A program made the position numbers and the translations under genes. A DNA stretch of 22,665 nt from a virus (lineage: Duplodnaviria; Heunggongvirae; Uroviricota; Caudoviricetes). Shown in pieces: positions 934 through 20,008 of this stretch. Below the pieces are notes generated by a model. It ran no database searches, had not been told where the DNA came from, and saw nothing but the letters and a program-made list of their open reading frames with translations. Location: positions 1 to 22,665 of the IMG/VR virus record IMGVR_UViG_2744054628_000009; one strand, given 5' to 3'. Position 1 is the first letter of the stretch. Each line of letters opens with the position of its first letter.

Positions 934-2619
934 GTGAATATAAACGTCGCCGAATTGTTAAATGGGAATTACATTCTGTTATTATTTGTGGTCCTCGCGC
1001 TTGGGCTATGTCTCGGAAAGTTACGACTTGGTTCGATCCAACTGGGTAATTCCATTGGCGTTTTAGTCGTATCGCTGTTATTAGGCCAACAACATTTCAG
1101 CATTAACACCGATGCGCTTAATCTTGGCTTTATGCTGTTTATTTTCTGCGTCGGGGTCGAAGCCGGACCGAACTTTTTTTCCATTTTTTTTCGCGATGGG
1201 AAAAATTACCTAATGTTAGCACTGGTGATGGTTGGCAGTGCGCTGGTGATCGCCTTAGGGTTAGGTAAGCTGTTTGGCTGGGATATTGGCCTGACGGCCG
1301 GTATGTTAGCAGGCTCTATGACGTCGACACCGGTTCTGGTCGGTGCTGGCGATACACTGCGTCATTCCGGCATGGAAAGCAGGCAGCTCTCACTGGCACT
1401 GGATAATCTGAGCCTCGGGTATGCCTTAACCTATTTAATCGGTCTGGTGAGTTTGATTGTTGGTGCGCGTTACTTGCCGAAATTGCAGCATCAGGACTTA
1501 CAGACCAGCGCCCAGCAAATCGCCCGCGAACGTGGCCTGGACACTGATGCCAACCGTAAGGTTTATTTACCGGTGATCCGCGCCTATCGCGTCGGCCCGG
1601 AACTGGTGGCCTGGACCGACGGCAAAAATCTGCGTGAACTGGGTATTTATCGACAAACCGGCTGCTACATTGAACGTATTCGACGTAACGGGATTCTGGC
1701 AAATCCAGACGGTGATGCCGTGCTACAAATGGGCGATGAAATAGCGTTGGTAGGCTATCCCGACGCCCATGCCCGACTCGATCCCAGCTTCCGTAACGGT
1801 AAAGAAGTTTTCGATCGTGACCTTCTCGACATGCGTATCGTCACTGAAGAAGTGGTCGTTAAAAACCATAACGCTGTAGGTAAACGTCTCGCACAACTGA
1901 AGTTGACCGATCACGGTTGCTTCCTTAACCGCGTCATTCGTAGCCAGATTGAGATGCCGATAGATGACAACGTCGTGCTTAACAAAGGTGACGTTTTACA
2001 AGTCAGCGGCGATGCCCGCCGCGTAAAAACCATCGCCGATCGCATCGGCTTTATCTCGATTCACAGCCAGGTCACTGACCTGCTGGCATTCTGCGCCTTC
2101 TTTGTTATTGGGCTGATGATCGGGATGATCACCTTCCAGTTCAGCACATTCAGTTTCGGCATGGGGAACGCTGCCGGGTTGTTATTCGCCGGAATTATGC
2201 TGGGCTTTATGCGTGCTAACCACCCGACCTTCGGTTACATTCCGCAGGGTGCATTAAGCATGGTGAAAGAGTTCGGCTTGATGGTGTTTATGGCAGGCGT
2301 TGGTCTGAGCGCCGGTAGCGGTATTAATAACGGCCTGGGCGCGATTGGCGGTCAGATGTTGATTGCCGGATTGATTGTCAGTCTGGTGCCCGTGGTTATC
2401 TGTTTCTTGTTCGGTGCTTATGTATTGCGAATGAACCGCGCGCTGTTGTTCGGCGCAATGATGGGCGCACGTACCTGCGCGCCGGCAATGGAGATCATCA
2501 GTGATACAGCTCGCAGTAACATCCCGGCGCTGGGCTATGCGGGCACCTATGCAATCGCCAACGTCCTGCTGACGCTGGCAGGGACAATCATCGTCATGGT
2601 ATGGCCAGGATTAGGATAA
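934..2619 (+). CDS. ybjL: Putative transporter YbjL (AAE-family permease with central TrkA-C-like domains)
   Basis: 561-aa ORF with GTG start; membrane domains at both ends flank a soluble central region; matches remembered E. coli YbjL in length and sequence. Confidence 0.85.
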
Positions 2620-2731
2620 AACTGAAGTTGCCCTGAAAATGAAATTTTTTTGCACAACCGCAGAACTTTTCCGCAGGGCATCAGTCTTAATTAGTGCCAC
2701 TGCTTTTCTTTGATGTCCCCATTTTGTGGAG

Positions 2732-2775
2732 CCCATCAACCCCGCCATTTCGGTTCAAGGTTGATGGGTTTTTTG
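2732..2775 (+). terminator. Rho-independent terminator downstream of ybjL
   Basis: 10-bp perfect inverted repeat cccatcaacc (2732-2741) / ggttgatggg (2759-2768) followed by tttttt (2769-2774). Confidence 0.6.
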
Positions 2776-2854
2776 TTGCCTGAAATTTATGCCGTTTAAA
2801 ATCATGACGTTAGGAGCACTGTTTTTTAACGATGGCGACAAAATGGCGGCAGCG

Positions 2855-3073
2855 TCAAAGAGAGAGCGCCACCTGTCCTGATTTCATTGGATGCGGCTGA
2901 ACCGGATTTGACTCTTTTGGCGTTGCAATCGAACGAACAAAAGTTTCATGGGTAACAAAAGTATGGCTGCAGTTAATGTTCTGGCACTGGTTGTAACGCT
3001 CTTTGGTCAATGAAGATACCTGAAAACTGCTGCGAGTATGGGCGGCACTTCCACACAGTGGGCAAATCATCAT
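2855..3073 (-). CDS. ogr: Late-gene transcription activator, Ogr/B family zinc finger
   Basis: MMICPLCGSAAHTRSSF...KERYNQCQNINCSHTF... carries the C-x2-C...C-x4-C Ogr zinc-finger pattern, about 72 aa from the internal ATG. The ORF-track start at 3106 is probably an upstream extension. Confidence 0.8.
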   Translation of the reverse strand: MMICPLCGSAAHTRSSFQVSSLTKERYNQCQNINCSHTFVTHETFVRSIATPKESNPVQPHPMKSGQVALSL

Positions 3074-3163
3074 TTTTCGAGTTCTCCCCATTTTTGCTAA
3101 ATTCACAATAATGATACCGCATTATTCCATTTTGAAAACTTAAAAGTTCTCCATTGCGAAGAA

Positions 3164-4264
3164 TCACTCCATTTCGAAATCATCAATCTTCACTTCAAGC
3201 TCCAAACTGGTCGTAAAACCGTTATCCGGGCTGACAGTATGCGTCAGGGTGGTAATAGTCCATTCCGCATCATCTATCGGCTGTTTAAAGCCACTGACTT
3301 TCACTGGCATTTCCGTGTAGAGATCTGCCCGACCTTCTGCCAGTTGTAGCGAGAATGACGCAACACCGCGTTGCAGGCGTTCCCACTGCATTTTCGCTGC
3401 CCGCTCGGCGTTGCCCCGGTTGGCATAGGTGCGATTAAGTACCAGCACGTTTTCATCCGTACCCACCAGGTAATCGCCCTGCTTCGCTTCCGGCTCTTTC
3501 TTCTGCTTCTTAGTCCTGCGCTTACGCTTCACGGCAGTGCTTTCTTTCTTCGCGGGTTCACGGGTATGTAACCAACTGGCAATTACGCCCGTATAGGCTC
3601 CGCGATCTGCCAGGGTAAAGCGGTGACTGTCGCCGTCCTTACGTGTGATAGTGATCACCGGCAGTGGTTTACCAGTGGCGCTTTTGCCCTGTCCCTGCCG
3701 GATGAATAACAGATTGCCATTTTTCACCGACGCGATGGCACCGTACTGGCGCGCCAGCCGCATCAGAAAACTGCCGTCACTCTCATTAGTCTGGTCTATA
3801 TGCTCCACGGGCTTATCCGACAGGTCTTTACCCAGTGCCATCTTCAGCTTGTGACGCGCGGCTATTTCCTTCACCACTTCCCCGACAGTGGTCTTGTGCC
3901 ACGACTTTTCACGGCGGGTATTCAGCGTTTCACGAAAATCAGCACTTCGCGCCCGGATAGTCAGGCGGTCCGGTGCGCCAGTGTGTTCAATCTCGTCCAC
4001 CGTGAATGCCCCTTTCGGGAAAAGCGGCTGCCCCTTCCAGCCCAGCGCCAGCGTAATGACCGCACCACGGCGCGGCAGCACGATTTTTCCGTCGGCGTCG
4101 TCCAGCTCCAGATCAAGCTGGTCCGCTTCAAAGCCCCGATTGTCCGTCAGCGTCAGACTCATCAGGCGATTATCCAGGACAGTAGTGATATCCCTGCCCT
4201 CAATACTGATGCTGAATGCGGGAGTTTTGTTGCCCTTGTTAAGCAGTTCAGAGCTGAAATTCAC
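3164..4264 (-). CDS. D: P2 gpD-like tail protein
   Basis: 366-aa ORF immediately upstream of ogr with an ATGA overlap to gpU, as in P2; sequence recalls gpD. Confidence 0.75.
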   Translation of the reverse strand: MNFSSELLNKGNKTPAFSISIEGRDITTVLDNRLMSLTLTDNRGFEADQLDLELDDADGKIVLPRRGAVITLALGWKGQPLFPKGAFTVDEIEHTGAPDRLTIRARSADFRETLNTRREKSWHKTTVGEVVKEIAARHKLKMALGKDLSDKPVEHIDQTNESDGSFLMRLARQYGAIASVKNGNLLFIRQGQGKSATGKPLPVITITRKDGDSHRFTLADRGAYTGVIASWLHTREPAKKESTAVKRKRRTKKQKKEPEAKQGDYLVGTDENVLVLNRTYANRGNAERAAKMQWERLQRGVASFSLQLAEGRADLYTEMPVKVSGFKQPIDDAEWTITTLTHTVSPDNGFTTSLELEVKIDDFEME

Positions 4265-4746
4265 GACAGCAGCCCTCCCACCGTTTTACTGATATCGCTT
4301 AAAGCAGATGTTGCCGTTTCCTGCAGATTATTCAGTTGCGCACTGAGATCACCGAACATATCGGACAGGGATTCATCCACCCGTTTGAGCGACAGGGTGA
4401 ACTCAATCCGGCGCGGCATACCATCGCGGAAAAACTCCGTTTTAGTCTGATTCAGTCCCTCAATCACATACATGCCGTAAATCGTGCCGCTGCCTTCAAT
4501 CAGGGGCCATGCTTTTCCCTGTTCTGCCATCTGCTCCAGAGCCAGCAACGACAGCCTGCCGCCCGTTATCTCCGGCATAAGAACACCAGAAAGCGTCAGC
4601 ATGTCGTTGTCCGGTCCCAGAAACTGCGTGGACGGACGTCGGTTGACCCGGCTGTTTGCCGCATGTCGCCAGCTGCGTTGATACTGCAGTTCCTGATACG
4701 GCACAGTGCGCAGCATAAACACGTACAATCCCAGCACCATCATCAT
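4261..4746 (-). CDS. U: P2 gpU-like tail protein
   Basis: 161 aa (P2 gpU is about 159 aa); position between T and D; start/stop overlaps with neighbours. Confidence 0.75.
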   Translation of the reverse strand: MMMVLGLYVFMLRTVPYQELQYQRSWRHAANSRVNRRPSTQFLGPDNDMLTLSGVLMPEITGGRLSLLALEQMAEQGKAWPLIEGSGTIYGMYVIEGLNQTKTEFFRDGMPRRIEFTLSLKRVDESLSDMFGDLSAQLNNLQETATSALSDISKTVGGLLS

Positions 4747-5634
4747 GCGTCGTATCCCCCCTGATCGCTGTAGTTACTCCTGGCTTTTGCCTTCAGTCTG
4801 CGCTCACGTTCATCAAGCTGGCGGGCCACCTCCCGCGCAATATCCTGCGCACTTTGTCCTGGCTGCGTCTGAATGATGATCTGCGTCGGTGCCTCAATCC
4901 GGTAAATGGGCGGCACAGTAGCTGCACGACTCACCATCGCTTCACCGCCTTTCGCGGGAAGCGCCAAAGGATGCAACGGTGGAAACTCTGCTGGCGCGGC
5001 AGCAACGCCCATCATTCCGGCAACAACGGCAGCCAGTGCAGCTGTATTTTTCCGGCTGGTCACATTTGCCGGGCCGTTAACAATTTCCGGCCCGTTTTCA
5101 CCGACGATGCCAAACTGCCCGCGCGGGATATACCCGCCGCTGTCATACATCCCCGCAAAGCCATATCCCCATGATGGAAAACCACCCGATGGCATCATCA
5201 CTTTACCGTCTGCATTCACCGTCGCAGGTTGCTGACGCGTCACGCTTTCCGGCAGTTTTGCCTTTGCGGCCTCTTTACTGACAATGCCGAGCTTCTCCAG
5301 CAACCAGGAAACGCCAGATTTCAGGGAGTCCAGCGGATGCGTGACCATATTCAGCCCTTCCGCCAGTGCCTCCCCGAATCGCCGCCCCATTGCCGCTGCG
5401 CTCTGCAGTTCGGCAGAGGTCGACTTAACGGGCGTCAGCAGATCAGTAAACCAGCCCCACAGCGCCTGCACTTTGTCGCCAATCCACTGGAACACGGGCT
5501 TAAGCGGTTCGAACGCTGCACTGATGGGACCTGCCGCCGCTTTGAATCCTTCCACCACGCCACCGAGAAATGCGGTGATGGGTTGCCAGTATTTCCAGAC
5601 AACCAGCGCCACGCCCGCCAGTGCAGTAACCACA
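4743..5634 (-). pseudogene. T: Tape measure protein gpT, C-terminal fragment only
   Basis: About 300 codons of Gly/Ala-rich tape-measure-like sequence ending in frame at the U start. The roughly 500 N-terminal codons expected for P2 gpT are absent. The upstream boundary is a deletion junction near 5635-5645. Confidence 0.65.
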
Positions 5635-5991
5635 AGACCTACCTTCAGCCAGTTGCGGCTTATAGCTTTCCGGGCAGTTGCCCACGGCAATCAATGCCCC
5701 GGACTCATCAAACAAGCCCACTTCACGTATCCACCAACCGCCCTCGTTTTCAGGGATCACCTGTTCGGCAATAATCTGGCTGCTGTTCTGCGGGTCGATA
5801 TAAAGCATATTCAGCGCAGCCCGGCGTTTCTCATTTACCAGTGCCGTCTGCTTTGCGTCCGGCGTTGGCAATACTCCACTGCCATCGCCCACCGCCATAT
5901 GGGTAATTTTTAGCGGCACACCGAGCGCGGCGGCGCTGGCAAGTTTCGCCGCGCCAATATCCGTCAGCAGGGTATAAAATTTTGTGCTCAT
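5635..5991 (-). pseudogene. H: Tail fiber protein gpH, N-terminal fragment (about 116 aa) fused out of frame to the gpT fragment
   Basis: MSTKFYTLLTDIGAAKLASAAALGVPLKITHMAVGDGSG...ESYKPQLAEG matches the remembered gpH N-terminus; after ...LAEG the frame reads Cys/Gly/Arg-rich nonsense to a stop at 5500. Confidence 0.7.
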
Positions 5992-6593
5992 GGATTCACT
6001 CTCATTGTGTCAATAACATGGACCGCCCCGCCTTCATGCGCGGTGCCACCGGAAATAATCGTTTCGTTGATATACGGATAGATCGTGATTTCTTCGCCAA
6101 GATAGCTGGCGGCTCCCACCCAATGCGGGCCGCTGGTCTGCAGATTGATGGACATGCCGATCATGTGGCGGCTACATGGTTTGGCATCGCTTATCAGTCG
6201 CTCAAGTTCCAGATAGGTATCTTCAGTGATGCCCTGGTCCTGCACGCCGATATCCAGGCGAAACGTGCCCGGTGTTTCTCCGGTCTGCCACCACTCAATA
6301 ATGCGGATCAGGAATCCGAACGGCTCCACCACCCGCCGCACGGCACTGGTGGTCCCTTTATGCTGATGAATATAAAAAGCATCCTTCACCACCTGGCGCT
6401 TGACGCTTTCTGTCCAGCCCTCGTCCCAGCGATCCACAGAGAACGCCCAAGCGAGATAAGGCAGGAAACTGACCGGACAGGTTGCCGGATTCCACAAGTC
6501 ACGAAGCGGCACCTGCAGATCAGAAATCCCGCTGCAAGTTTGCGCCAGTCGGCGCTCCAGTGGTGTTGAACCCGGTGGCAGCAGACTATTCAT
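5988..6593 (-). CDS. I: Baseplate protein gpI-like
   Basis: MNSLLPPGSTPLERRL...RDLWNPATCP...LPYLAWAFSVDRWDE... matches the conserved gpI N-terminal motifs; 4-nt overlap with the H start. Confidence 0.75.
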   Translation of the reverse strand: MNSLLPPGSTPLERRLAQTCSGISDLQVPLRDLWNPATCPVSFLPYLAWAFSVDRWDEGWTESVKRQVVKDAFYIHQHKGTTSAVRRVVEPFGFLIRIIEWWQTGETPGTFRLDIGVQDQGITEDTYLELERLISDAKPCSRHMIGMSINLQTSGPHWVGAASYLGEEITIYPYINETIISGGTAHEGGAVHVIDTMRVNP

Positions 6594-6846
6594 CCGTTCC
6601 TCCGTTGGTTACGCTCCACTGCGTACATGATGCCGCCTGTGTTTTGTTCAGGACCACATCCGCCACCGTGCCGTCAGTGCGCATGACACTGCGAAACTCC
6701 GACAGGTCCACATCAGGCCAGAACGGCGTATTTCTGATGATTTCCGCCTGTTCCGGTGCCTGTTCTGGCGCAACAAACTTCATGCTGCTTTCTCCTGAAA
6801 TAGAGGGCGGTGGACGGGGTTTTGATGTGGCAGTGCCTTTCGCCAC
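6586..6846 (-). pseudogene. Remnant: about 40 N-terminal codons of head completion protein gpL joined to a short 3-prime tail (probably the end of gpJ)
   Basis: The IIRNTPFWPDVDLSEFRSVMRTDGTV motif resembles the gpL N-terminus. The ORF is only 86 aa and its stop overlaps the gpI start as the J stop does in P2. All of X, lysis genes, R, S, V, W and most of J are missing between M and I. Confidence 0.4.
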
Positions 6847-6878
6847 CCCGTGCCGCCCGTGCGCGGGGGCACGTTCTG

Positions 6879-7529
6879 TCAGCGGCTGTCATTGCGCAGT
6901 CTGCGCTCCAGCTGCTGTTTGTCTTTTTTCACGCCACAGCGGGGATCAAGCTGTAACGCATGGTTGAGATGATTAAGGGCGGAAGCCGGATTGCTTTCAC
7001 TCAGGACAGCGCCAATCGCTTTATGCAGACGCGCCCGTGACTGGTCCGGCATATCCAGACCGTCTGTCAGCTCCAGCGTCTGCAACAACAGATCGGCATC
7101 AAAGCCGGTGGCGGCAAGCATTGCGCTCTGCGCGGCGTCTGCCATTTCCTCTGCCAGCACGGTCTGCACGTTGCGGTTACCCAGCGGCATCACCCAGCCA
7201 TGACGCAGGGCATGACGCCCGATCTCCAGCGCCCCGGCATAATCTCCGGCATCAATGCGCCACAGCATCACGTACATCAGCACATCATCCTGTTGAGCGC
7301 CTCCGGCAGCCAGGACACCCTCTGCCCAGGCGGCGTACTTCGGCAGCAGCTCCACCTTGATTTCCGCTTTTTTGACCGTGGACTGAACACCCTTGAGACG
7401 GCGGCGGTCTTCCGCCAGTTGCAGCAGCATCAGGTCATAGCCCGATGCGTGGCGAACACTGCCGCCCTCGCGGGCGGCCTGTTCAGCCTGAACGCGCAGG
7501 CGATGCTGCCGTGCGGGACTCAGGCTCAT
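6879..7529 (-). CDS. M: Terminase small (endonuclease) subunit gpM-like
   Basis: MSLSPARQHRLRVQAEQAAREGG...AQQDDVLMYVMLWRIDAGDYAGALEIGRHAL... matches remembered P2 gpM from residue 1; GGAG ribosome-binding site about 7 nt upstream on the minus strand. Confidence 0.75.
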   Translation of the reverse strand: MSLSPARQHRLRVQAEQAAREGGSVRHASGYDLMLLQLAEDRRRLKGVQSTVKKAEIKVELLPKYAAWAEGVLAAGGAQQDDVLMYVMLWRIDAGDYAGALEIGRHALRHGWVMPLGNRNVQTVLAEEMADAAQSAMLAATGFDADLLLQTLELTDGLDMPDQSRARLHKAIGAVLSESNPASALNHLNHALQLDPRCGVKKDKQQLERRLRNDSR

Positions 7530-9015
7530 GGATTACGCTCCGGTTTCGGCTGCGGCGGCGCTGAAATCACCAATCTGGATGTTTTCCAACCGCAATAAAG
7601 GCCCACGCCGTCAGCCGGAAAAGAATGTTTTCACCGATGAGCAGATTGAGAAGCTGGAAGAAATCTTCCATTCCTCCATGTTCAACTACCAGCGCCACTG
7701 GTGGGAAGCCGGAAAAACCAACCGCATCCGCAACCTGCTGAAGTCACGCCAGATCGGCGCGACCTTCTATTTTGCCCGTGAAGCCCTGATTGACGCCCTG
7801 CTTACCGGACGTAACCAGATTTTCCTTTCTGCCAGTAAGGCTCAGGCCCACGTCTTTAAACAATACATCATCGACTTTGCCAAAGAAGTCGAGGTGGAGC
7901 TAAAAGGCGATCCGATGGTGCTTCCTAACGGAGCCACGCTTTACTTCCTCGGCACCAATGCCCGCACGGCCCAGAGTTATCACGGCAACCTGTATCTGGA
8001 TGAATATTTCTGGATACCGAAATTCCAGGAGCTGCGCAAAGTGGCTTCCGGGATGGCTATTCACAAAAAATGGCGACAAACCTATTTTTCCACGCCATCC
8101 AGCCTGACCCACAGTGCTTATCCGTTCTGGTCCGGTGCGCTGTTCAACCGTGGACGCAACAAAGCTGACAAGGTGGACATCGACCTGTCCCACAGCAATC
8201 TGGCCCCCGGCCTGCTGTGCGCAGACGGGCAATACCGCCAGATAGTCACCGTGGAAGATGCGGTGCGCGGCGGCTGTAACCTGTTCGACCTCGACCAGCT
8301 ACGCATGGAGTACAGCCCGGACGAATACCAGAACCTGCTGATGTGCGAGTTCGTGGACGATCTCGCGTCCGTGTTCCCGCTCAGCGAACTGCAGGCGTGC
8401 ATGGTGGACAGCTGGGAAGTCTGGACCGACTTTCATGCACTGGCCCTGCGCCCGTTTGGCTGGCGCGAAGTGTGGATCGGTTATGACCCGGCAAAAGGTA
8501 CGCAGAACGGCGACAGTGCCGGATGCGTGGTGGTGGCTCCGCCAGCCGTGCCGGGTGGTAAGTTCCGCATTCTTGAGCGTCACCAGTGGCGCGGGATGGA
8601 CTTCCGCGCCCAGGCTGACGCCATCAAAAAACTCACCGAACAGTACAACGTGACCTATATCGGTATCGACTCAACCGGCGTTGGTCACGGGGTTTATGAG
8701 AACGTGAAAGCGTTCTTTCCTGCCGTCCGGGAGTTTGTCTACAACCCCAATGTTAAAAACGCCCTGGTACTCAAGGCCTACGACATTATCAGCCACCGCC
8801 GTCTGGAGTTTGACGCCGGGCACACCGACATTGCGCAGTCATTCATGGCAATCCGTCGCGCCACCACCGCCAGCGGCAACCGCCCGACCTATGAAGCCAG
8901 CCGCAGCGAAGAAGCCAGCCACGCCGATCTGGCCTGGGCAACGATGCACGCACTGTTTAACGAACCGCTGCAGGGCGAATCCGCCAATACCAGCAATATT
9001 GTGGAGATTTTTTGA
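7528..9015 (+). CDS. P: Terminase large (ATPase) subunit gpP-like, probably truncated at the 5-prime end
   Basis: Walker-A-like LKSRQIGAT; 4-nt overlap with the Q start. The M start codon abuts this ORF with no room for the divergent promoters or for O and N. The first 20-30 codons of the ORF are probably not native. True start not determined. Confidence 0.65.
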   Translation: MDYAPVSAAAALKSPIWMFSNRNKGPRRQPEKNVFTDEQIEKLEEIFHSSMFNYQRHWWEAGKTNRIRNLLKSRQIGATFYFAREALIDALLTGRNQIFLSASKAQAHVFKQYIIDFAKEVEVELKGDPMVLPNGATLYFLGTNARTAQSYHGNLYLDEYFWIPKFQELRKVASGMAIHKKWRQTYFSTPSSLTHSAYPFWSGALFNRGRNKADKVDIDLSHSNLAPGLLCADGQYRQIVTVEDAVRGGCNLFDLDQLRMEYSPDEYQNLLMCEFVDDLASVFPLSELQACMVDSWEVWTDFHALALRPFGWREVWIGYDPAKGTQNGDSAGCVVVAPPAVPGGKFRILERHQWRGMDFRAQADAIKKLTEQYNVTYIGIDSTGVGHGVYENVKAFFPAVREFVYNPNVKNALVLKAYDIISHRRLEFDAGHTDIAQSFMAIRRATTASGNRPTYEASRSEEASHADLAWATMHALFNEPLQGESANTSNIVEIF

Positions 9016-10040
9016 TGGGAAAGAGTAAGAAAAACCGCGCTGCGGCGACGAATCAGCTCAAGCATAAAAGCCAGACTTCAGCCGAAGCATTCAGCTTTGG
9101 CGATCCCGTTCCTGTTCTGGACCGCCGTGAACTGCTGGACTATGTGGAATGCGTACAGATGGACCGCTGGTATGAGCCGCCCGTCAGCTTTGACGGACTG
9201 GCACGAACCTTCCGCGCTGCCGTGCATCACAGCTCACCGATTGCAGTAAAATGCAACATTCTGACCAGTACCTACATCCCTCACCCGCTGCTCAGCCAGC
9301 AGGCTTTTTCACGTTTTGTGCAGGACTATCTGGTATTTGGTAACGCCTACCTGGAGAAACGCACGAACCGCTTCGGTGAAGTTATCGCCCTTGAGCCTGC
9401 TCTGGCAAAATACACCCGACGCGGGTTAGACCTGGATACCTACTGGTTTGTGCAATACGGTATGACAACCCAGCCGTATCAGTTCACGAAAGGCAGCATT
9501 TTTCATCTGATGGAACCGGACATTAACCAGGAGATCTACGGCCTGCCCGGCTATCTTTCTGCCATTCCGTCCGCCCTGCTCAATGAGTCCGCCACGCTGT
9601 TCCGCCGCAAGTATTACATTAACGGTAGTCATGCAGGCTTCATCATGTACATGACCGATGCTGCGCAGAACCAGGAGGACGTGAACAACCTCCGCAATGC
9701 AATGAAAAGTGCCAAAGGTCCGGGTAACTTCCGCAACCTGTTTATGTACTCGCCTAACGGCAAAAAGGACGGCCTTCAGATCATCCCTTTGTCAGAAGTT
9801 GCGGCGAAGGATGAGTTTCTAAATATCAAGAACGTGAGCCGGGATGACATGATGGCAGCACATCGCGTTCCGCCACAGATGATGGGGATAATGCCTAATA
9901 ATGTTGGGGGATTTGGGGATGTAGAAAAAGCTAGTAAGGTATTTGTGAAAAATGAATTATTACCATTACAAAAAAGAATGAAAGAATTTAATCATTGGAG
10001 CGGTGAAGAAATTATAAAATTCGAGAGATATCAAATTTAG
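9012..10040 (+). CDS. Q: Portal protein gpQ-like
   Basis: 342 aa (P2 gpQ is about 344 aa), immediately downstream of P with an ATGA overlap. Confidence 0.8.
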   Translation: MMGKSKKNRAAATNQLKHKSQTSAEAFSFGDPVPVLDRRELLDYVECVQMDRWYEPPVSFDGLARTFRAAVHHSSPIAVKCNILTSTYIPHPLLSQQAFSRFVQDYLVFGNAYLEKRTNRFGEVIALEPALAKYTRRGLDLDTYWFVQYGMTTQPYQFTKGSIFHLMEPDINQEIYGLPGYLSAIPSALLNESATLFRRKYYINGSHAGFIMYMTDAAQNQEDVNNLRNAMKSAKGPGNFRNLFMYSPNGKKDGLQIIPLSEVAAKDEFLNIKNVSRDDMMAAHRVPPQMMGIMPNNVGGFGDVEKASKVFVKNELLPLQKRMKEFNHWSGEEIIKFERYQI

Positions 10041-10041
10041 C

Positions 10042-10066
10042 AAAGTGCCTCTAAAAGAGGCGCTTT
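10042..10066. terminator. Hairpin between the convergent Q and DprA-like genes (possible bidirectional terminator)
   Basis: aaagtgcctct-aaa-agaggcgcttt: an 11-bp stem with one G-T pair, A-rich on the 5-prime side and T-rich on the 3-prime side. Confidence 0.45.
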
Positions 10067-11039
10067 AAATCAAGTCTAATGTACTCTGTTTCCCTGGCCA
10101 TTTTAGCTCTAACAAATACTCCCGAGACTCATTTATGATCATAATCACATCATCATAATCCCGTTTTGTTTTTAACGCTCTAGCCATGTTGCTCTTAACT
10201 AAATCAACTGTTCCCTCACAATTAAGATTAAGCGGATTATTAGGTAGGTGAGGTACAACCGCAAACACTGGTCTTTTCGCCTTATTTGCAAACTCAGCTT
10301 GAGTTATCGTTCCGCTATTTAACGCAGCCTCGATTAAAATTGAACCTGCAGATAATCCAACTTGTATCCGATTTCTTTGTACAAATGATTGTTTCTGGGC
10401 CGGTCGACCCATAGGATACTCAGAAATCCATGCACCACCTTTATCCAGAATCTCTTGAGCAAGTCGACTGTTTTGCTTCGGCTTAGCCTCCTCAAGACCA
10501 TGCGCCAAGACAGCAATGGTTTTTCCTTTTGCTTGTAACGTTGCCTTATGAGCATTCGCATCAGTGCCTATTGCTAACCCACTTACAACAATATACCCAG
10601 CAGACACTATTTGATTAGTGATTCGCCTCGTTATTTCTTCCCCTGCAGGGGAAGTATCACGGGATCCTACAATTGCGACACCCGGCAATTCTTTTAGTAT
10701 ACTTTTATCCCCTTTTATGTAGAGAATTGATGGTGGATTAGGAGTAAACGCTAAACTAAGAGGATAGAATTCAGACCCATATGGTATTAGCTCCACACCA
10801 TTAACATGGTGGTTCTCCAATTCAGCATTCGCTATTAGAAAATCAGTCTCAGATATTTTATCTTTTAGAAACCCGTGGCTATTAACCATCTCAGTTAAGT
10901 CGCGTATATCACGAATAACATCAAAATCAATAAGCTCAAAGAATTTCAATACACTTTGATCAGATGCTAGCTTCCCGATTTGAATAGCTAATCCAAGTGT
11001 ATTTTTTAATTCTTCTGAGTGCACTTTGCTACTCCTCAT
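10065..11039 (-). CDS. shosA: DprA/Smf-like (SLOG-fold) protein; ShosA-like
   Basis: C-terminal region VAIVGSRDTSPAGEEI...SGLAIGTDANAHKATLQAKGKTIAVLAHGLE...QRNRIQVGLSAGSILIEAALNSGTI fits the DprA Rossmann-domain pattern. Start overlaps the upstream PRTase gene by 11 nt; an AGGAG precedes an alternative GTG at 11027. Confidence 0.65.
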   Translation of the reverse strand: MRSSKVHSEELKNTLGLAIQIGKLASDQSVLKFFELIDFDVIRDIRDLTEMVNSHGFLKDKISETDFLIANAELENHHVNGVELIPYGSEFYPLSLAFTPNPPSILYIKGDKSILKELPGVAIVGSRDTSPAGEEITRRITNQIVSAGYIVVSGLAIGTDANAHKATLQAKGKTIAVLAHGLEEAKPKQNSRLAQEILDKGGAWISEYPMGRPAQKQSFVQRNRIQVGLSAGSILIEAALNSGTITQAEFANKAKRPVFAVVPHLPNNPLNLNCEGTVDLVKSNMARALKTKRDYDDVIMIINESREYLLELKWPGKQSTLDLI

Positions 11040-11604
11040 AGTTTGCAGTTTCTAGCAGAGCTAATGGCATTATAACTCCAGCTCCTGCAGACTCCAGTAA
11101 ATAAAAACACGCAGACAAACTACCGCCTGTTGTTTTAACATCATCTAGTAGTAACACATTTCGCCCCATGAGGTTACCACCCCTAACTCTGATACTAGAC
11201 ATGTGACCAGTAATTGAGCGATCTCCTCCTTCACGATGTGCGCTAGGAACAGTGCGTGTTCTTTCCAAACAGCAATCAACAATGCCCCGACGGTGAACAT
11301 TTACGATTCGCTCGGCGACCTCAATCAAAGCCGGTGAAATTCTGCCTTCAGTGTGAGATGGGACGACTGCTATCGAAAAAGGAGACTCAACAAAACGCCC
11401 ACCGCCACCTCTGATTACTAACCGCCCAACCTTATCTATAGCTAATCGAGAAAAACGGTTAATAGCCCTTTGATGATTACGATTATTTTCATCCTTAAAA
11501 TCCATCATCTGCCTTGATAGTTCATCGCTATGAGGGTTGCGCTCTCCCAAATGCCAGTAGGGGTGATACAAGCCACACGATGTAACACTTACGGGTAAAA
11601 GCAT
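11029..11604 (-). CDS. shosT: Phosphoribosyltransferase-domain protein; ShosT-like
   Basis: Type I PRTase PRPP-binding motif VLLLDDVKTTGGSL near residue 150; 191 aa; translationally coupled to the DprA-like gene. Confidence 0.65.
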   Translation of the reverse strand: MLLPVSVTSCGLYHPYWHLGERNPHSDELSRQMMDFKDENNRNHQRAINRFSRLAIDKVGRLVIRGGGGRFVESPFSIAVVPSHTEGRISPALIEVAERIVNVHRRGIVDCCLERTRTVPSAHREGGDRSITGHMSSIRVRGGNLMGRNVLLLDDVKTTGGSLSACFYLLESAGAGVIMPLALLETANYEE

Positions 11605-11761
11605 TCTTTATTCTCATGTAGTCCTAACTCAAACAATGTTAAGCGAAATGATATTTCATAGACAAACATAAAATTAAGAATAATCTCAATGATCACATTT
11701 TTGATTATGAAACAAAGCCAAGAGTTAGCGCGCGCTCGTATCCCCGCCACGCCTGCCCGCT

Positions 11762-11880
11762 TTATGCAGTGGTTTTCATGCACATGCATGACATGAGCAA
11801 AAGCCCGCCAGTTCTGGCGGATCTGAGCAAAGACGATCCTCAATCGATCATGCGATTTCATGCAGCATAGTCATGCACTG
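11762..11880. repeat. Cluster of (T/A)CATGCA heptamer repeats flanking a GC-rich inverted repeat
   Basis: TCATGCA at 11776, 11857 and 11869; variants TTATGCA at 11762 and ACATGCA at 11782; inverted repeat ccgccag-tt-ctggcgg at 11805-11820. Lies in a 528-bp intergenic region between divergent genes. Confidence 0.4.
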
Positions 11881-12132: not shown

Positions 12133-12468
12133 ATGAACAATATTCCCCCTATACCACAGTTAGGAATTTATGTCTCAAAAATCGATCCCACCCTACGTAT
12201 CACTGTAACCGATGTTGATATTGTTGATGGTGAGGATGATTCTCCTGATGATGAATTGTTTTATTTAGTCCACTGGATCGAGGGGGAAGATGAAAGTGAT
12301 ATGACAGCAATGGGATTTGAGCTAGACCCATTAGAGTGGCAGGCTTTCGTTGAATCTGAGCAATTAGTGTTTGAGCGTGATCCGTACATGGATTCAATCC
12401 CCGAAAATTCAAACTTGGCAAAGATTCGGGATTTTCTCATGAAGACTAAACAGAATGATCATTCGTAA
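12133..12468 (+). CDS. Highly acidic small hypothetical protein (111 aa)
   Basis: Strong ribosome-binding site AAAGGAG 7 nt before the ATG; protein very rich in D/E (DVDIVDGEDDSPDDELF...EGEDESD...); no family recognised. Confidence 0.6.
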   Translation: MNNIPPIPQLGIYVSKIDPTLRITVTDVDIVDGEDDSPDDELFYLVHWIEGEDESDMTAMGFELDPLEWQAFVESEQLVFERDPYMDSIPENSNLAKIRDFLMKTKQNDHS

Positions 12469-13245: not shown

Positions 13246-15660
13246 TTAATACAGGTTCCGCCACTTATCATCTTCCTTCAGACGCTGGTTCCGATAGAAG
13301 ATACGCAGGCCTGCTCCTGACGGAATACTGCCGCCGCGAAGGAGCAAATCGACTTCTTTCTCGCTGCCATCAAATCCCCTGGACTTCAGTTCATAGACGA
13401 GCTGCTGTCGCTGATGGTCTGTAATTCGCTGTTTGTAGTCTTTACGCCGTTTCGGTTTCACCTGGCGTAACCTTGCAGCCAGTTCCCGGCGCTCTTTTTT
13501 GCTCATACTGTGCAGGTAATCGTGCAACTCCTTGTCATTCATACGGGTAATATCCGTTCTGGAGTCCCCATCAGCTGATTTGTCTTTCCCTTGTTGGTTC
13601 AAATTTTCAGCAAGGGGACAGTTATTGCCACGAGTCCAAGGGGCGCAAGCGCCCTGGTCGGCTGCCGCCTCCTGAACGTCAACGACCTTACGAACCATTT
13701 TCCATTTCATTGCATGAGTGCAGATCTTGCCCTGTACAATGGGTGACCAGATGCCATAAATACGAATACCGTGATCGCCATAAGCGGTCGGCTCTTCGTT
13801 AATTTCATAAGCTGTTCTGATAAGGTGATATTTGCGGGGAACCAGTACGCCGCCCTGCTTCATGATGTAGGTGGCAAAACAGCCAGCATCAGCGGCAGCC
13901 AGGATGGCATCAAGGCGCGGGTCATCCAGTACCGGCGCACCTGCTTTTTTATCACCCTGTTGCCTTGCCGCCTGACCAGCCAGCAAGCGAAGTTCACGGT
14001 ACGCCTGACGCCCCGGAATACCAAAGAAGCGGAACTGCTGAACACGATGCAGAGACGCCCAGGCATTAACGTATTCGGCGTTATCACGCAGGGATTTACC
14101 CGTTTCCTTGCTGATCTCGCCAGCCAGACCACGTCCGTCAATGTTCTTACTGATGTATTTCGCGATGTAGCTTGTCGGCGTTCCTTTGCGCGGGTTTATC
14201 AGCTCAGACTTAAAGCGTGGACCCGTGTTATTGCCCAGTTCCTCGCGGTCTTCACGGATGGCAAACTTACGCAACAATGCAGTAATGGCGCGGCGGTCTT
14301 TTTTGCGCATGAAACACATGAGATGCCAGTGCACAGTACCGTCATGGTGCGGCTCAGCCACCCGCACGCCATACCAGCGCAACCCGGCTTTGTGCATAGC
14401 CTTACGAAATGCAGCAAACATGCCGACCAGATAATCGCTGCTTTGTCTTACCGTCGCATTTGTCCAGGTTGGGTTTGGTCTGCCGTTATTGAGCGTAGAA
14501 TGGAAACGTGACGGACAGGTAATGGTGTAGAAAACGGCGCAGTCACCACGCATTTCCGCGATAAGCTCCAGACCTTTAACACAGGCCATCATCTCATTGC
14601 GGCGGTGCGCCGGGTTGCTGCTGCTGGCGTTTACCACGTCTTCCATATCCAGCGTGTCGCCGTCTTCGTTCACCAGTTCATGAGAACGGAAAAACTCCAG
14701 CGACTTGCGGCGCTGCTCACGTTTATGCGTCACTGCTTCATAGCTGACATAGGGAGATGCTTTTTTGCTGACCAGGCAGACAGCACGCAACTGCTCTTCC
14801 CGCCATTCGCAACGTATCTTCCACAATTTTCGATACCACCAGTCGGCGCAAAGCATACGTGCCAGCGAACCCGGTATGAGTTCATAGGGCACGGGTTTGC
14901 GGCGGTTTCTTTTCCGACGGAGTTTCTCAAACGCAGGCGGGATAACATCCAGACGCAGGGTTTCCGCTGCCACCTTTTCCCATGTCTTGCGGATTTCTTC
15001 TGGCTTAACGTCATCGGAGGCATACAAATCACCACAAGCGGCCTCAAGACACATGCTCATATGCGCTGCTACCAAGGTGGACAGGCGTTTTACCTGATCC
15101 TGACTCATTTCAGGTAGGATCAGCAGGCCCTCAAGCCCTTGATGGCTTGCCATAAAACGGAAAGAAGCGGATAGCTGACTGTCGCGTACATACTCCAGTC
15201 GCTCCAGACATGACTTAATCGTCTCACGCAAATAGCGGGAATAAGCCTTTGGCCTGCCCAGGCTGCTGAAGTATTCGATACGTTGCATCAGCGGCTTGCT
15301 GATGTGGGTGGGCTGGGCGCTGACGTCCGCCAGAATGACCATGTCCGGGTTAAAACGCTGCTGCTCATGCGCCAGCTTTGCCCGACTAATGAGATTATCC
15401 TGCTCCATTTCGCGCTGGACAGGATCACGGGATTCATTAAAGAAATAACGCTCCCAGACCTGCTCACTCAGTGCATCGCGGCGCAGCTGTTCCTGCTCGT
15501 TATCGGCAGCGTACAAAGTGATCATGTTTGAAAGTGCAGACTCCGGCGCAACTTCCGCCGGGTCCAGATAAGGGTTAATGGCCTTTTTCGGGCCGTTCCA
15601 TGAAAATGCTGCAGCGGCCTCGTTAAAGCCGCTAGAGTTGCTCATATCATCATGACTCAT
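13246..15660 (-). CDS. A: Replication initiation protein gpA-like (rolling-circle nickase)
   Basis: 804-aa ORF at the end of the early operon with an ATGA overlap to the upstream dam gene; sequence recalls P2/186 gpA. Confidence 0.8.
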
Positions 15661-16513
15661 ACACGCACCTCGTACACAGCAGAACTATCCACGCCACGCG
15701 AAGGATCAAATCCCACCCAGCAGCGCGCCCCGGAAACAGCAATGATTTCTGTTGCAGATTTACTCTCGCCAGCCGACACGCCGATGCTGCGTTTTGCCTT
15801 GATGTAGTGGTGAGTGAAATTGCGATACAGCGAACGAATCAGGGATGTGTCACTGTTAGAAACAATGACCGGATGACCTTCAGATGATCGATGTTCAAGA
15901 ACGGATGCCAGGTGATACTGGTCATCCTCAGTGAAGCCATCAGTGTGATAGCCGGAAAACGTACCGTCATAAGGCGGATCGCAATACACCACATCCCCCG
16001 CCTTCAACATCGCCAGCGTTTCATCAAAGCTGGCGCAGATAAACGTTGCTCGCTGGGCTTTTTCTGCAAATTTGCGAATTTCTTTTTCAGGGAAATACGG
16101 ATTTTTATAATTCCCGTAGGGAATGTTGAATGCCCGCTCTTGTTATAGCGACATAACCCACGGTAACCATGACGATTGAGATACAGGAAATATACCGCTT
16201 TCATGAAATCAGTAATTTCAGTGGAGTAATTAAACTCCTGCCTTATGTTGTAATAAGCCACCTCCCTGTTTGCTTCCTCAAATAAAGCTCTGGCACGAGA
16301 TATAAACGCCTCGCAATCAGCAGCAACCTTTTTATAGAGGTTGATTAAATCAGGATTAATATCCGCAACAAGATAGCTGGGGTAATCCGTCTCTATCATC
16401 ACAGCACAAGAACCCGCGAAAGGTTCAACCAGTCGCGGGCCAGCAGGAAGGTATTTTTTCAGTTCTGGCATAATGGCGGTTTTATTACCCGCCCATTTCA
16501 GGATGGTGCTCAT
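15657..16513 (-). pseudogene. dam: DNA adenine methyltransferase (Dam-like) with a frameshift near 16129-16131
   Basis: N-terminal ORF has motif I ([11 protein letters not shown]) and ...[17 protein letters not shown]; the -1 frame continues [38 protein letters not shown]...VVYCDPPY (motif IV). One base missing in a short homopolymer. Confidence 0.8.
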
Positions 16514-18415: not shown

Positions 18416-18439
18416 GACAAAAGTTCACTTGGAGTGACC

Positions 18440-19009
18440 ATGAATTTGGAGAAAGGCGGACGAGGCGCTATAGAGCGCATGGTAGAAGCATATGGCTTCA
18501 AGACTCGACAGGCGTTGTGCGATCACTTAGGAATCTCTAAAAGTACTCTCGCCACACGCTATATGCGTGACTCATTCCCTGCTGAATGGGTAATCCAGTG
18601 CGCACTTGAAACGGGCGCCTCGCTTAACTGGCTCACGACCGGACATGGTTCAAAGCAAACTTCAGGTAATACAAATACTATGGAAGTCGTTAAATATGTA
18701 TTATCTGATGGAACCTTGCAGGAAGATGGTTTTTATATTTTCGATAAAGAATTTCTACCATCTACGCTCAAAAATCCGTTTGTAATCACCGATAACAATT
18801 CCGTTTTTATTTGCGATAAAGAGTTTAACGATATTCGTGACGGCAAATGGGTAATAAGTATTGATGCCGAAGTAACAATCCGCGATATCACTCGTTTACC
18901 TGGTGGAAGAATCTTAGTTGAAGGTGGAAATAGGGCTTTCGAATGTAAAAAAGAAGAAATTGAAATTATTGGAAAAATTATAAGCATAACAGTTAAGTAC
19001 TTTGAGTAA
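18440..19009 (+). CDS. cI: 186-type CI immunity repressor
   Basis: N-terminal HTH motif AIERMVEAYGFKTRQALCDHLGISKSTLATRYMRDSFPAEWVIQCALETG plus a CI C-terminal-type domain. GGAG at 18431-18434 precedes the ATG at 18440; an alternative in-frame GTG is at 18434. Confidence 0.75.
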   Translation: MNLEKGGRGAIERMVEAYGFKTRQALCDHLGISKSTLATRYMRDSFPAEWVIQCALETGASLNWLTTGHGSKQTSGNTNTMEVVKYVLSDGTLQEDGFYIFDKEFLPSTLKNPFVITDNNSVFICDKEFNDIRDGKWVISIDAEVTIRDITRLPGGRILVEGGNRAFECKKEEIEIIGKIISITVKYFE

Positions 19010-19059
19010 TATAGGAATGTTTTTATGCTTGGTAAAGCATTTGTTGTGGTGTAAAAAAT

Positions 19060-19983
19060 ATGTCAACTCAAAAATTAAAATTTAGCCATATCAAAAACGA
19101 TCTGAAAGCAATAGTTATGCAGAATCGTGGAGGGCAAAAAGTTATTGAGCGTATACTCCTAGCCTATGGCTTCAAGTCACGACAGGCATTATGTAATCAT
19201 CTAGGTATTTCCCAAAGTACTATGGCCAACAGATATGCACGTAATACCTTTCCTGCAGATTGGGTTGTTATATGTTCCATAGAAACAGGAGCATCAATTG
19301 AATGGTTAGTTCTTGGTTCAGATACTGCTCCTTCATCAAAGCAATATTCTGAAAAACATGCCGTTAATGGCCTTTGCAATGAAGTATACATTCCCACTAT
19401 AAAGTTCGATAATGAAAAACTCATGAATTTTAACCGAGGGGGTAAGGCAACAATAGAACGAATTGTCGAGGCTTACGGTTACAAAACGCGCCAAGCATTA
19501 GCTGATCACCTAGGTATTTCAAAAAGCACATTAGCCACACGATACATGCGTGACATTTTTCCTGCAGACTGGGTTTTGCAGTGTGCAATAGAAACGGGCC
19601 ATTCTATTGAATGGATTTCATTTGGTACAGGAGAAATGAAAAACGCAAAAAATAAAGATACTTTAACATTAGTGAAAAAAGTATTAATCAATGGCAAGTT
19701 AATAAATGATGGCTCATATTTATTTGACCCATGCTTTCTACCTTCCAATTTAAAAAATGCATTCGTAGTATCTACCGAAGACTCTGAATTAATATGTGAA
19801 ATAGGTTTTAAAGATGTACATGATGGTAAGTGGCTAGTAAATATTGATGGAGAGAATTCATTTAGAATGATAACTCGACTACCTAAAGGACGAGTTTATA
19901 TTTCATCCCAAAATCACTCTTTTGAATGTTCGCTTACAGACATTGAGTTTATTGCAAAAGTTATTATAAGTTGTTTACATTAA
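19060..19983 (+). CDS. CI-repressor paralog with two tandem N-terminal HTH domains and a CI-like C-terminal domain
   Basis: Two HTH copies (about aa 22-85 and 127-190) each resemble the cI N-terminus; the second is roughly 85% identical by eye. The C-terminal part aligns with the cI C-terminus (LPSNLKN..., DGKWL.NID..., ITRLP.GR). AT-rich. Confidence 0.65.
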   Translation: MSTQKLKFSHIKNDLKAIVMQNRGGQKVIERILLAYGFKSRQALCNHLGISQSTMANRYARNTFPADWVVICSIETGASIEWLVLGSDTAPSSKQYSEKHAVNGLCNEVYIPTIKFDNEKLMNFNRGGKATIERIVEAYGYKTRQALADHLGISKSTLATRYMRDIFPADWVLQCAIETGHSIEWISFGTGEMKNAKNKDTLTLVKKVLINGKLINDGSYLFDPCFLPSNLKNAFVVSTEDSELICEIGFKDVHDGKWLVNIDGENSFRMITRLPKGRVYISSQNHSFECSLTDIEFIAKVIISCLH

Positions 19984-20008
19984 GTAAATTTTTCATGGAG
20001 ACTTCATA

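Follow-up and report, generated by a model that had tools for sequence, protein, structure and literature searches.

Rousset et al. described a system consisting of a DprA-like protein and a phosphoribosyltransferase (PRTase), encoded in a P2-like prophage of Escherichia coli APEC O1 (pFR105), that protects against the phages T7 and lambda (PMC9122126). The structures of this toxin-antitoxin (TA) system, ShosTA, have been solved (Pu et al. 2025; Yang et al. 2026). The toxin ShosT, a protein of 424 amino acids (aa), consists of an N-terminal HAD-like pyrophosphatase (PPase) domain (residues 1-164) and a PRTase domain (residues 165-424). The D331A/D332A substitutions abolish its toxicity (PMC11961720, PMC12961424); the PPase mutant R56A shows only a marginal loss of toxicity (PMC11961720). 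The antitoxin ShosA is a dimeric DprA-like protein, SAM-like at its N-terminus, that binds single-stranded DNA (ssDNA) and RecA and neutralizes ShosT without binding it. The system is triggered by the transcription shut-off that is induced by T7 Gp0.7, combined with the instability that the C-terminus confers on ShosA (PMC11961720). Here we analyze a related gene pair in a stretch of DNA of 22,665 nucleotides (nt) from the IMG/VR record IMGVR_UViG_2744054628_000009 (hereafter, the window), a P2-like prophage that has integrated between the genes rybB and rcdA. On the minus strand, a gene for a 191-aa PRTase (11029..11604), the putative toxin ("minimal ShosT"), is followed by a gene for a DprA-like protein (10065..11039), the putative antitoxin ("ShosA-like"). 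We conclude that the pair is not a new kind of system and is a distinct variant of ShosTA. In our assessment, the comparative analysis makes it reasonably probable that these genes represent the DprA-like/PRTase TA superfamily (ShosTA, PsyrTA/RqlHI) in a minimal architecture, are low-GC cargo of the P2-like prophage and most likely function as an abortive-infection antiphage module.

The PRTase open reading frame (ORF), which starts with ATG in the list of ORFs of the window, ends with a TAG codon (11031-11029). The DprA-like ORF encodes 324 aa when read from the ATG at 11039, in which case the two ORFs overlap by 11 nt, or 319 aa when read from the GTG at 11024, which is located 4 nt past the PRTase stop codon. 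Inspection of the junction, ATGAGGAGTAGCAAAGTG (11022..11039, minus strand), reveals a GAGGAG Shine-Dalgarno sequence within the 3' end of the PRTase gene, so that the genes are tightly coupled with either start. The GTG codon is probably the start of the DprA-like protein, given that in the 76%-identical allele of E. coli RM10410 the annotation pipeline PGAP uses the equivalent position. The start of the DprA-like gene in homologous modules is either 0-5 nt past the PRTase stop codon or in a slight overlap with the PRTase gene. The GC content of the pair is 0.418, compared to 0.49-0.57 in the neighboring phage core genes. Homologs of the PRTase, even those with an identity as low as 40%, are 189-193 aa long, and the sequence at the start of the protein, MLLPVSV, is kept in alleles of 76-89% identity. 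In a comparison with the RM10410 allele, the PRTase shows a ratio of nonsynonymous to synonymous substitution rates (dN/dS) of 0.073 and the DprA-like protein one of 0.060, so that both genes are under purifying selection. Together with a confident AlphaFold2 (AF2) fold (see below), the conserved length and the low dN/dS values indicate that both ORFs are genuine genes rather than chance reading frames.

The downstream gene product contains a DprA domain that is readily identified with the Pfam profile DNA_processg_A (E-value 1.4e-60, 204.5 bits). The protein consists of an N-terminal helical region, the DprA Rossmann domain (approximately residues 80-284) and a C-terminal helix with a tail that ends with STLDLI. 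Among the PADLOC models, for which we relied on E-values, bit scores and controls rather than on PADLOC's own thresholds, the best matches are the ShosA models PDLC03961 (2.8e-70) and PDLC02997 (2.8e-33), followed by PsyrA (1e-30). The matches in the Protein Data Bank (PDB) are DprA (3maj, 2.2e-31) and ShosA (8zva, 1.6e-29; 9vzo, 1.7e-29), and the protein belongs to PHROG family 4299 (4e-126). The signatures that are invariant in the family, namely GSR (R127), SGLAxGxDxxAH, FVxRNRIQ (R222) and R256, are all retained. Alignment with 8zva, applied to the ShosA residues tested by Yang et al., maps the ssDNA-binding arginines R139 and R234 to R127 and R222, respectively, and the RecA-contacting K200 to K188, all of which are kept. 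The C-terminal motif [ST]x[SD]L[ILF], encoded at 10065-10100 of the window, is common to the short-type ShosA-like proteins and canonical ShosA (…QQLSLLGDE), and by analogy with ShosA this tail could be an instability or degron element. Models of the housekeeping DprA score below their cutoffs, by a wide margin in the case of PRK10736 (168.6 bits vs 495) and narrowly in the case of TIGR00732 (186.4 bits vs 191.15), and the gene resides in a prophage hotspot, not in the chromosomal smf locus.

The upstream gene product carries the signature of enzymes that bind phosphoribosyl pyrophosphate (PRPP), NVLLLDDVKTTGGSL, at residues 148-162, with the PRPP loop LLLDDVKTTGGS at residues 150-161. K37, P82, R115, R129, D154 and D155 do not vary among 80 representatives of the PRTase family. 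AF2 models the protein as one compact and complete type I phosphoribosyltransferase (PRT) fold, in which the aspartates of the PRPP loop, D154 and D155, are retained; the mean predicted local distance difference test (pLDDT) score is 89.5, and the predicted template modeling (pTM) score is 0.87. In a Foldseek search with this model, three ShosT structures ranked at the top (E-value of about 1e-5, template modeling score of about 0.5). The PRTase is thus a ComF/PurF-like type I PRT domain of the clade that includes ShosT, PsyrT and other defense PRTases; the defense PRTases, ShosT and PsyrT among them, have been reported to form one clade (bioRxiv 10.1101/2025.09.30.679545). A profile search of 1.84 billion representative sequences yielded 1053 clusters at E<=1e-10, mostly of 175-200 aa; a few of the matches are C-terminal domains of larger proteins, and one relative consists of 708 aa. 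Neither Pfam nor PADLOC detects a HAD domain in the PRTase, the hotspot contains no HAD gene, and 191 aa is the longest possible ORF. The earlier note on this DNA, made from the sequence alone, had interpreted positions 10065-11604 as two translationally coupled minus-strand genes, the first with a PRPP-binding motif and the second with a DprA/Smf-like Rossmann domain, and had remarked that the PRTase, being shorter than expected, may be a distinct variant. All these observations hold.

The comparison with the ShosTA systems of APEC O1 and KTE181 (Rousset 2022; Millman 2022; Pu 2025; Yang 2026) reveals a shared plan with major differences in detail. In both cases, a two-gene DprA-like/PRTase cassette is located in the hotspot between gpA and gpQ of a P2-like prophage. 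Over 198 aa, APEC O1 ShosA and the DprA-like protein show 36% identity (E-value 1e-34); they have in common the arginines of the GSR and FVxRNR motifs and the equivalent of K200, and their tails are similar. The PRPP loops of the toxins have a pair of aspartates in common, with D154/D155 of LLLDDVKTTGGS aligned to the VIDDFCTEGN segment of ShosT. However, the putative toxin consists of 191 aa and lacks the HAD/PPase domain of the 424-aa, two-domain ShosT; the toxin gene precedes the antitoxin gene here and at all short-type loci examined, whereas in APEC O1 the order is reversed; and the pair occupies the portal side of cos, the phage cohesive-end site, in contrast to the gpA side in the case of APEC O1 ShosTA. 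Specifically, the APEC O1 locus consists of the portal gene, cos (~6191-6209), shosA (6414-7397), shosT (7399-8673) and gpA. The broad PADLOC models recognize both proteins of the window: PDLC03962 (ShosT) matches the PRTase with 51 bits (3.6e-14) over profile positions 62-211 of 237, and PDLC03961 (ShosA) matches the DprA-like protein with 235 bits, compared to 180 and 285 bits, respectively, for the APEC O1 proteins. With the canonical models PDLC03012 and PDLC02997, the APEC O1 proteins score 914 (913.7) and 765 bits, and those of the window none and 113 bits. The ShosTA-like interpretation proposed in the earlier note is supported, with corrections as to the gene order, the side of cos and the weight of the ShosT match. 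The variant is distinct in its putative toxin, which consists of the PRTase alone, the reversed gene order, the other insertion sub-site and the lack of a detectable relation to characterized ShosT beyond the PRPP loop.

Several observations weigh against the assignment of the pair to ShosTA-like TA systems or complicate it. The canonical ShosT model PDLC03012 (427 positions) does not match the PRTase at E<=0.1. The match to the broad model PDLC03962 discriminates weakly, being only 11-18 bits above those of six ordinary ComF-family proteins, which score 33-40 bits (E-values of 1e-8 to 1e-11) in the same search; enzymes similar to orotate phosphoribosyltransferase score 15-24 bits. Because the ComF-family controls match this model, the ShosT match alone is not diagnostic, and therefore the assignment rests mainly on the DprA-like partner and the conserved synteny. 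Alignment to the characterized proteins, which had been suggested as a check along with the profile search, succeeded for ShosA; for ShosT, BLASTP against the APEC O1 protein aligns only 44 aa around the PRPP loop, hhalign with the family alignment covers 49 columns, again the PRPP loop only, so that the residues of the pyrophosphate (PPi) and flexible loops (H204, H240, K280 and R285) cannot be mapped, and a phmmer search of the PDB did not retrieve ShosT at E<=1. Even the DprA-like protein is, in pairwise comparison, no closer to the solved ShosA (106 bits) than to the DprA of Rhodopseudomonas (112 bits), and ShosA R261, R206 and the dimer residues L181/F182 correspond to E249, A194 and Q169/A170, respectively, and thus are not kept. 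Furthermore, the isolated PRTase domain of RqlH is not toxic (PMC4670107), so that toxicity of a PRTase-only protein is not guaranteed. A scan for the sigma-70 consensus upstream of the PRTase gene revealed no strong minus-strand site; the promoter of the operon is presumably located, given its position, within the AT-rich leader of 130 nt (11605..11734, minus strand) that separates cos from the PRTase start. Finally, in the literature we found neither an experiment on the short form nor a discussion of a HAD-less ShosT. Automated tools already label DprA-like/PRTase pairs as "ShosTA" (e.g. PMC11878078). Neither protein sequence was found in the searched portion of the supplements of Rousset et al., which does not show that they are absent there.

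Other systems that combine or resemble these components differ in distinct ways. In PsyrTA/RqlHI, the toxin is a RecQ-like helicase fused to a C-terminal PRTase; only the C-terminal 110 of the 689 positions of the PsyrT model match the PRTase, and neither Pfam nor the AF2 model reveals a helicase domain in the latter, whereas its DprA-like partner matches PsyrA, as indicated above. RqlH needs its PRPP pocket to be toxic (PMC4670107) and physically interacts with RqlI. In the pair described here, the PRTase is the entire putative toxin. The type III retron effectors and OpnC of the Ophion system likewise are ComF/PurF-like type I PRT domains employed as defense effectors, but their partners are different, namely reverse transcriptase and multicopy single-stranded DNA (msDNA) in retrons and radical SAM and PHP proteins in Ophion, compared to the DprA-like protein here. 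No PADLOC retron-PRTase model matches the PRTase at E<=0.1.

A short PRTase gene (173-193 aa) with a DprA-like gene (312-325 aa) immediately downstream of it is a real, conserved and mobile module, with the same gene order at every site compared. It is present at the same site in P2-like prophages of Pectobacterium, and in the P2-like Salmonella phage SopEPhi, where the products of orf14 and orf15, annotated as "unknown", are encoded in the same place (cos, PRTase, DprA-like, portal gene) and the PRTase is 49.5% identical to the one in the window. Two different Mu-like prophages also contain the module, which there lies between mor and the lysis genes, and further copies are located at a non-phage chromosomal site and in an E. 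coli island. Among species-representative genomes, a search with an 18-sequence alignment keyed on a single PRPP-loop pattern detected 42 loci, most of which, as expected for such a pattern, are unrelated PRTases; a DprA-like gene follows the PRTase gene in all 12 of those loci (12/12) that show near-full-length PRTase matches, mostly in metagenome-assembled genomes of Lachnospiraceae and other Clostridia. The pair is present in 34 of the 5426 complete E. coli genomes (23 at >=95% identity and 11 at ~76%), and the exact PRTase protein is encoded on at least 1000 contigs. Both proteins fall into PHROG families (7188 and 4299) that are listed as "unknown function". In distant relatives (positions 3001-6253 of one retrieved locus, and a further contig), one or more PRTases, the DprA-like protein and a HAD hydrolase are each encoded by a separate gene next to the others, and one locus contains two PRTase genes (173 and 407 aa). 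The separate HAD gene implies that the HAD/PPase module is optional, being part of the toxin in canonical ShosT, a gene of its own in some relatives and missing here, and suggests that ShosTA-type systems are assembled modularly.

The gpA-gpQ region of P2-like prophages is a known defense hotspot that also carries ShosTA (PMC9122126), and the cargo of this hotspot in P2-like phages is strongly enriched for defense (PMC9122126, PMC13586616). In the window, the replication protein gpA (13246..15660, minus strand) and the portal protein gpQ (9012..10040, plus strand) bound the hotspot, which on the minus strand consists of gpA, a 62-aa ORF, a DinI-like gene, an ORF for an acidic 111-aa protein (on the opposite strand), cos, the PRTase gene, the DprA-like gene and a hairpin, on which the portal gene converges from the opposite side. 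Alignment to the circularized cos junction of P2 (46/60 identities, E-value 1e-7) places the cohesive-end site at ~11735-11753, with GGCGTGGCGGGGATACGAG on the minus strand, and the same motif occurs in the APEC O1 locus; a search for the 19-mer of P2 cos, exact or with three mismatches, found nothing. Of the hotspot, only the ~155 base pairs around cos show conservation across 45 P2-like phage records. The tin and old genes of P2 are located between gpA and cos, and in that phage cos is separated from Q by only 187 nt. The pair therefore belongs to the gpA-gpQ hotspot, where it occupies a second sub-site located between cos and the portal gene; the earlier note was right to place it between the portal and replication genes but not in equating its position with that of tin and old.

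The combination of a ComF-like PRTase with a DprA-like protein also brings to mind natural transformation. ComF and DprA are encoded by core competence genes. To our knowledge, these genes usually are not adjacent, in contrast to the coupled operon on mobile elements described here. One could envisage that the pair is a competence-like module for ssDNA handling, in which a PRT-fold protein similar to ComFC would cooperate on ssDNA with a RecA loader similar to DprA, for example to promote recombination or repair for the prophage or host, with neither a toxin nor an immunity role. ComFC indeed binds ssDNA and interacts with DprA (PMC9005727). However, the ComF model TIGR00201 scores 25.5 bits with the PRTase, far below its cutoff of 233.55, and the N-terminal four-cysteine zinc finger that defines ComFC is missing (the only cysteines are C10, C110, C111 and C166). 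Moreover, the module occurs sporadically, as low-GC cargo that unrelated phages carry in hypervariable hotspots and that is found in a small minority of E. coli genomes; this is typical of defense morons rather than of core DNA metabolism, and every characterized DprA-like/PRTase pair behaves as a TA or defense system (PMC9122126, PMC4670107, PMC11961720). For these reasons, we rate the ssDNA-handling function lower than the abortive-infection function and consider it unlikely.

We assign the same low probability to a TA module that stabilizes the prophage or the hotspot cargo by addiction and has no antiphage activity. ShosTA was first described as a TA pair, and the retention of an intact cassette in a heavily deleted prophage (see below) is what one would expect of an addictive element; nevertheless, the related long-form system found in this hotspot confers protection from T7 and lambda (PMC9122126), the cargo of this hotspot is enriched for defense, as noted above, and addiction and defense are not mutually exclusive. 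The possibility that the pair is a decayed remnant, in which truncation has left a ShosT pseudogene beside an orphan ShosA, is suggested by the PRTase length, less than half that of characterized ShosT, and by the fact that PGAP leaves the PRTase uncalled in near-identical RefSeq copies from E. coli, but is effectively refuted by the conservation of a length of 173-197 aa over hundreds of clusters, the complete, high-confidence fold, the dN/dS of 0.073, the conserved MLLPVSV start and the lack of any HAD-like ORF fragment upstream. A housekeeping enzyme of purine or pyrimidine salvage or a PyrR/PurR-like regulator that happens to be encoded next to a DprA gene is equally far-fetched: its PRPP loop does resemble those of Apt, Hpt and PyrE, but all housekeeping models score at most 26 bits against cutoffs of 100-300 bits and match the PRPP loop only, the best of them being adenine PRTase NF005592 (25.8 bits vs 143), Pfam Pribosyltran scores 18.6 bits against a cutoff of 26.3, and the adjacency to the DprA-like gene is conserved in mobile elements. 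Hence, no model of a housekeeping PRTase (Apt, Hpt/Gpt, PyrE, Upp, PurF or Prs) or of ComF, the matches that the earlier note had named as evidence against a ShosTA-like function, came near its cutoff, and the family cutoffs, fold, length conservation and dN/dS led us to reject the pseudogene, housekeeping-enzyme and true-ComF interpretations.

If the pair is an abortive-infection module, its mode of action can be outlined by analogy with the characterized systems. The PRTase would use PRPP to phosphoribosylate an acceptor, resulting in DNA damage or replication stress, and, in the absence of a fused pyrophosphatase, PPi would be removed by the host Ppa. The DprA-like protein would neutralize the toxin indirectly, as in type IV TA systems, by binding ssDNA and recruiting RecA-dependent repair. 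The toxin-first gene order, with the Shine-Dalgarno sequence in the 3' end of the toxin gene, would couple the synthesis of the antitoxin to translation of the toxin. Infection could tip the balance in either of two ways: through shut-off of host transcription followed by fast loss of the labile antitoxin, or through titration of the antitoxin by phage ssDNA or ssDNA-binding protein (SSB).

A more speculative scenario, which we consider improbable although slightly less so than the ssDNA-handling and addiction alternatives, is that the whole ShosTA/PsyrTA superfamily descends from a core made up of the short PRTase and the DprA-like protein, a core that itself arose from the partnership of ComFC and DprA in natural transformation. 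Under this scenario, the ComFC-like PRTase would act at or on ssDNA instead of the pools of free purines, for instance through phosphoribosylation of DNA or DNA-bound bases; its DprA-like partner would counteract it directly on ssDNA or RecA filaments; the module would sense ssDNA intermediates of phage replication; and the helicase and HAD/PPase domains would have been added later as accessories. In that case, the purine-metabolism model of ShosT would need revision, and the 191-aa protein would be the simplest handle on the true acceptor.

The portal and DprA-like genes converge, and the 24 nt that separate them contain a short inverted repeat, GCCTCT-TTT-AGAGGC (10047..10061); with weak support, it is probably a terminator common to both genes. 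In P2, the terminator tQ is located at the equivalent position after Q. A scan for consensus terminators did not report the hairpin at 10047..10061. The leader at 11605..11734 contains no gene and no Rfam family, an Rfam scan of the entire hotspot detected no RNA family, and a repeat search found nothing meaningful. A 90-aa ORF that overlaps cos (11589-11861) has no family matches and was discarded as spurious. On the tin/old side of cos, the acidic 111-aa protein, encoded opposite to gpA (12133-12468, plus strand), has a pI of 4.05, with 26 aspartates and glutamates compared to 7 lysines and arginines, and belongs to PHROG 17127 (unknown function), with a DUF8087 domain indicated in one RefSeq record; purely as speculation, this composition recalls the DNA-mimic anti-defense proteins.

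The host flank of the prophage is marked by the small RNA RybB (2699-2777, plus strand; 105 bits, full length) and by a gene for a ybjL-like transporter (934-2619, plus strand). Comparison of positions 5750-7588 with the prophage of E. coli PCP06171, which is intact and otherwise 99% identical, indicates that the prophage in the window derives from such a prophage by deletion. Two internal deletions removed the baseplate, tail and lysis genes, the capsid gene N, the scaffold gene O and the 5' end of the gene for the terminase gpP, which retains 495 aa compared to 589 in the intact prophage; despite these deletions, the hotspot cargo is intact. A gene for a Dam-like DNA adenine methylase (~15656-16513, minus strand) is split into two ORFs by a 1-nt deletion relative to PCP06171 (CATTTC to CATTC) and is either a frameshifted pseudogene or the result of a sequencing error. 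An island that adjoins the integrase gene (18434-21526, plus strand), with a GC content of 0.34, encodes two paralogous CI-like repressors (191 and 307 aa) and a 505-aa P-loop NTPase of the KAP family that matches the PADLOC candidate defense system PDC-S20 (7.7e-78) and, more weakly, PifA and QatA. The island is probably a second site of defense cargo.

The RefSeq annotation of this module is asymmetric. The PRTase ORF is not called by RefSeq/PGAP in any of the E. coli copies that are at least 98.8% identical (for example, NC_011601.1 and NZ_CM129872.1) or in some of the 76%-identical alleles, whereas the DprA-like gene is annotated. Consequently, protein-based defense finders that start from these annotations would see an orphan "DprA" and are expected to miss the system. 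The findings described here also show that cargo in the P2 hotspot occupies two sites, with cos between them, and that the superfamily is modular, with a core that consists of the PRTase and the DprA-like protein and with HAD or helicase modules that are fused, separate or absent. Every ShosTA studied so far has the 424-aa HAD/PPase-PRTase toxin, and the cassette in this prophage is a natural, minimal version that contains the PRTase domain only. As such, it would provide a direct handle on the toxicity of the PRTase alone, on the dispensability of the pyrophosphatase and on what the enzyme modifies.

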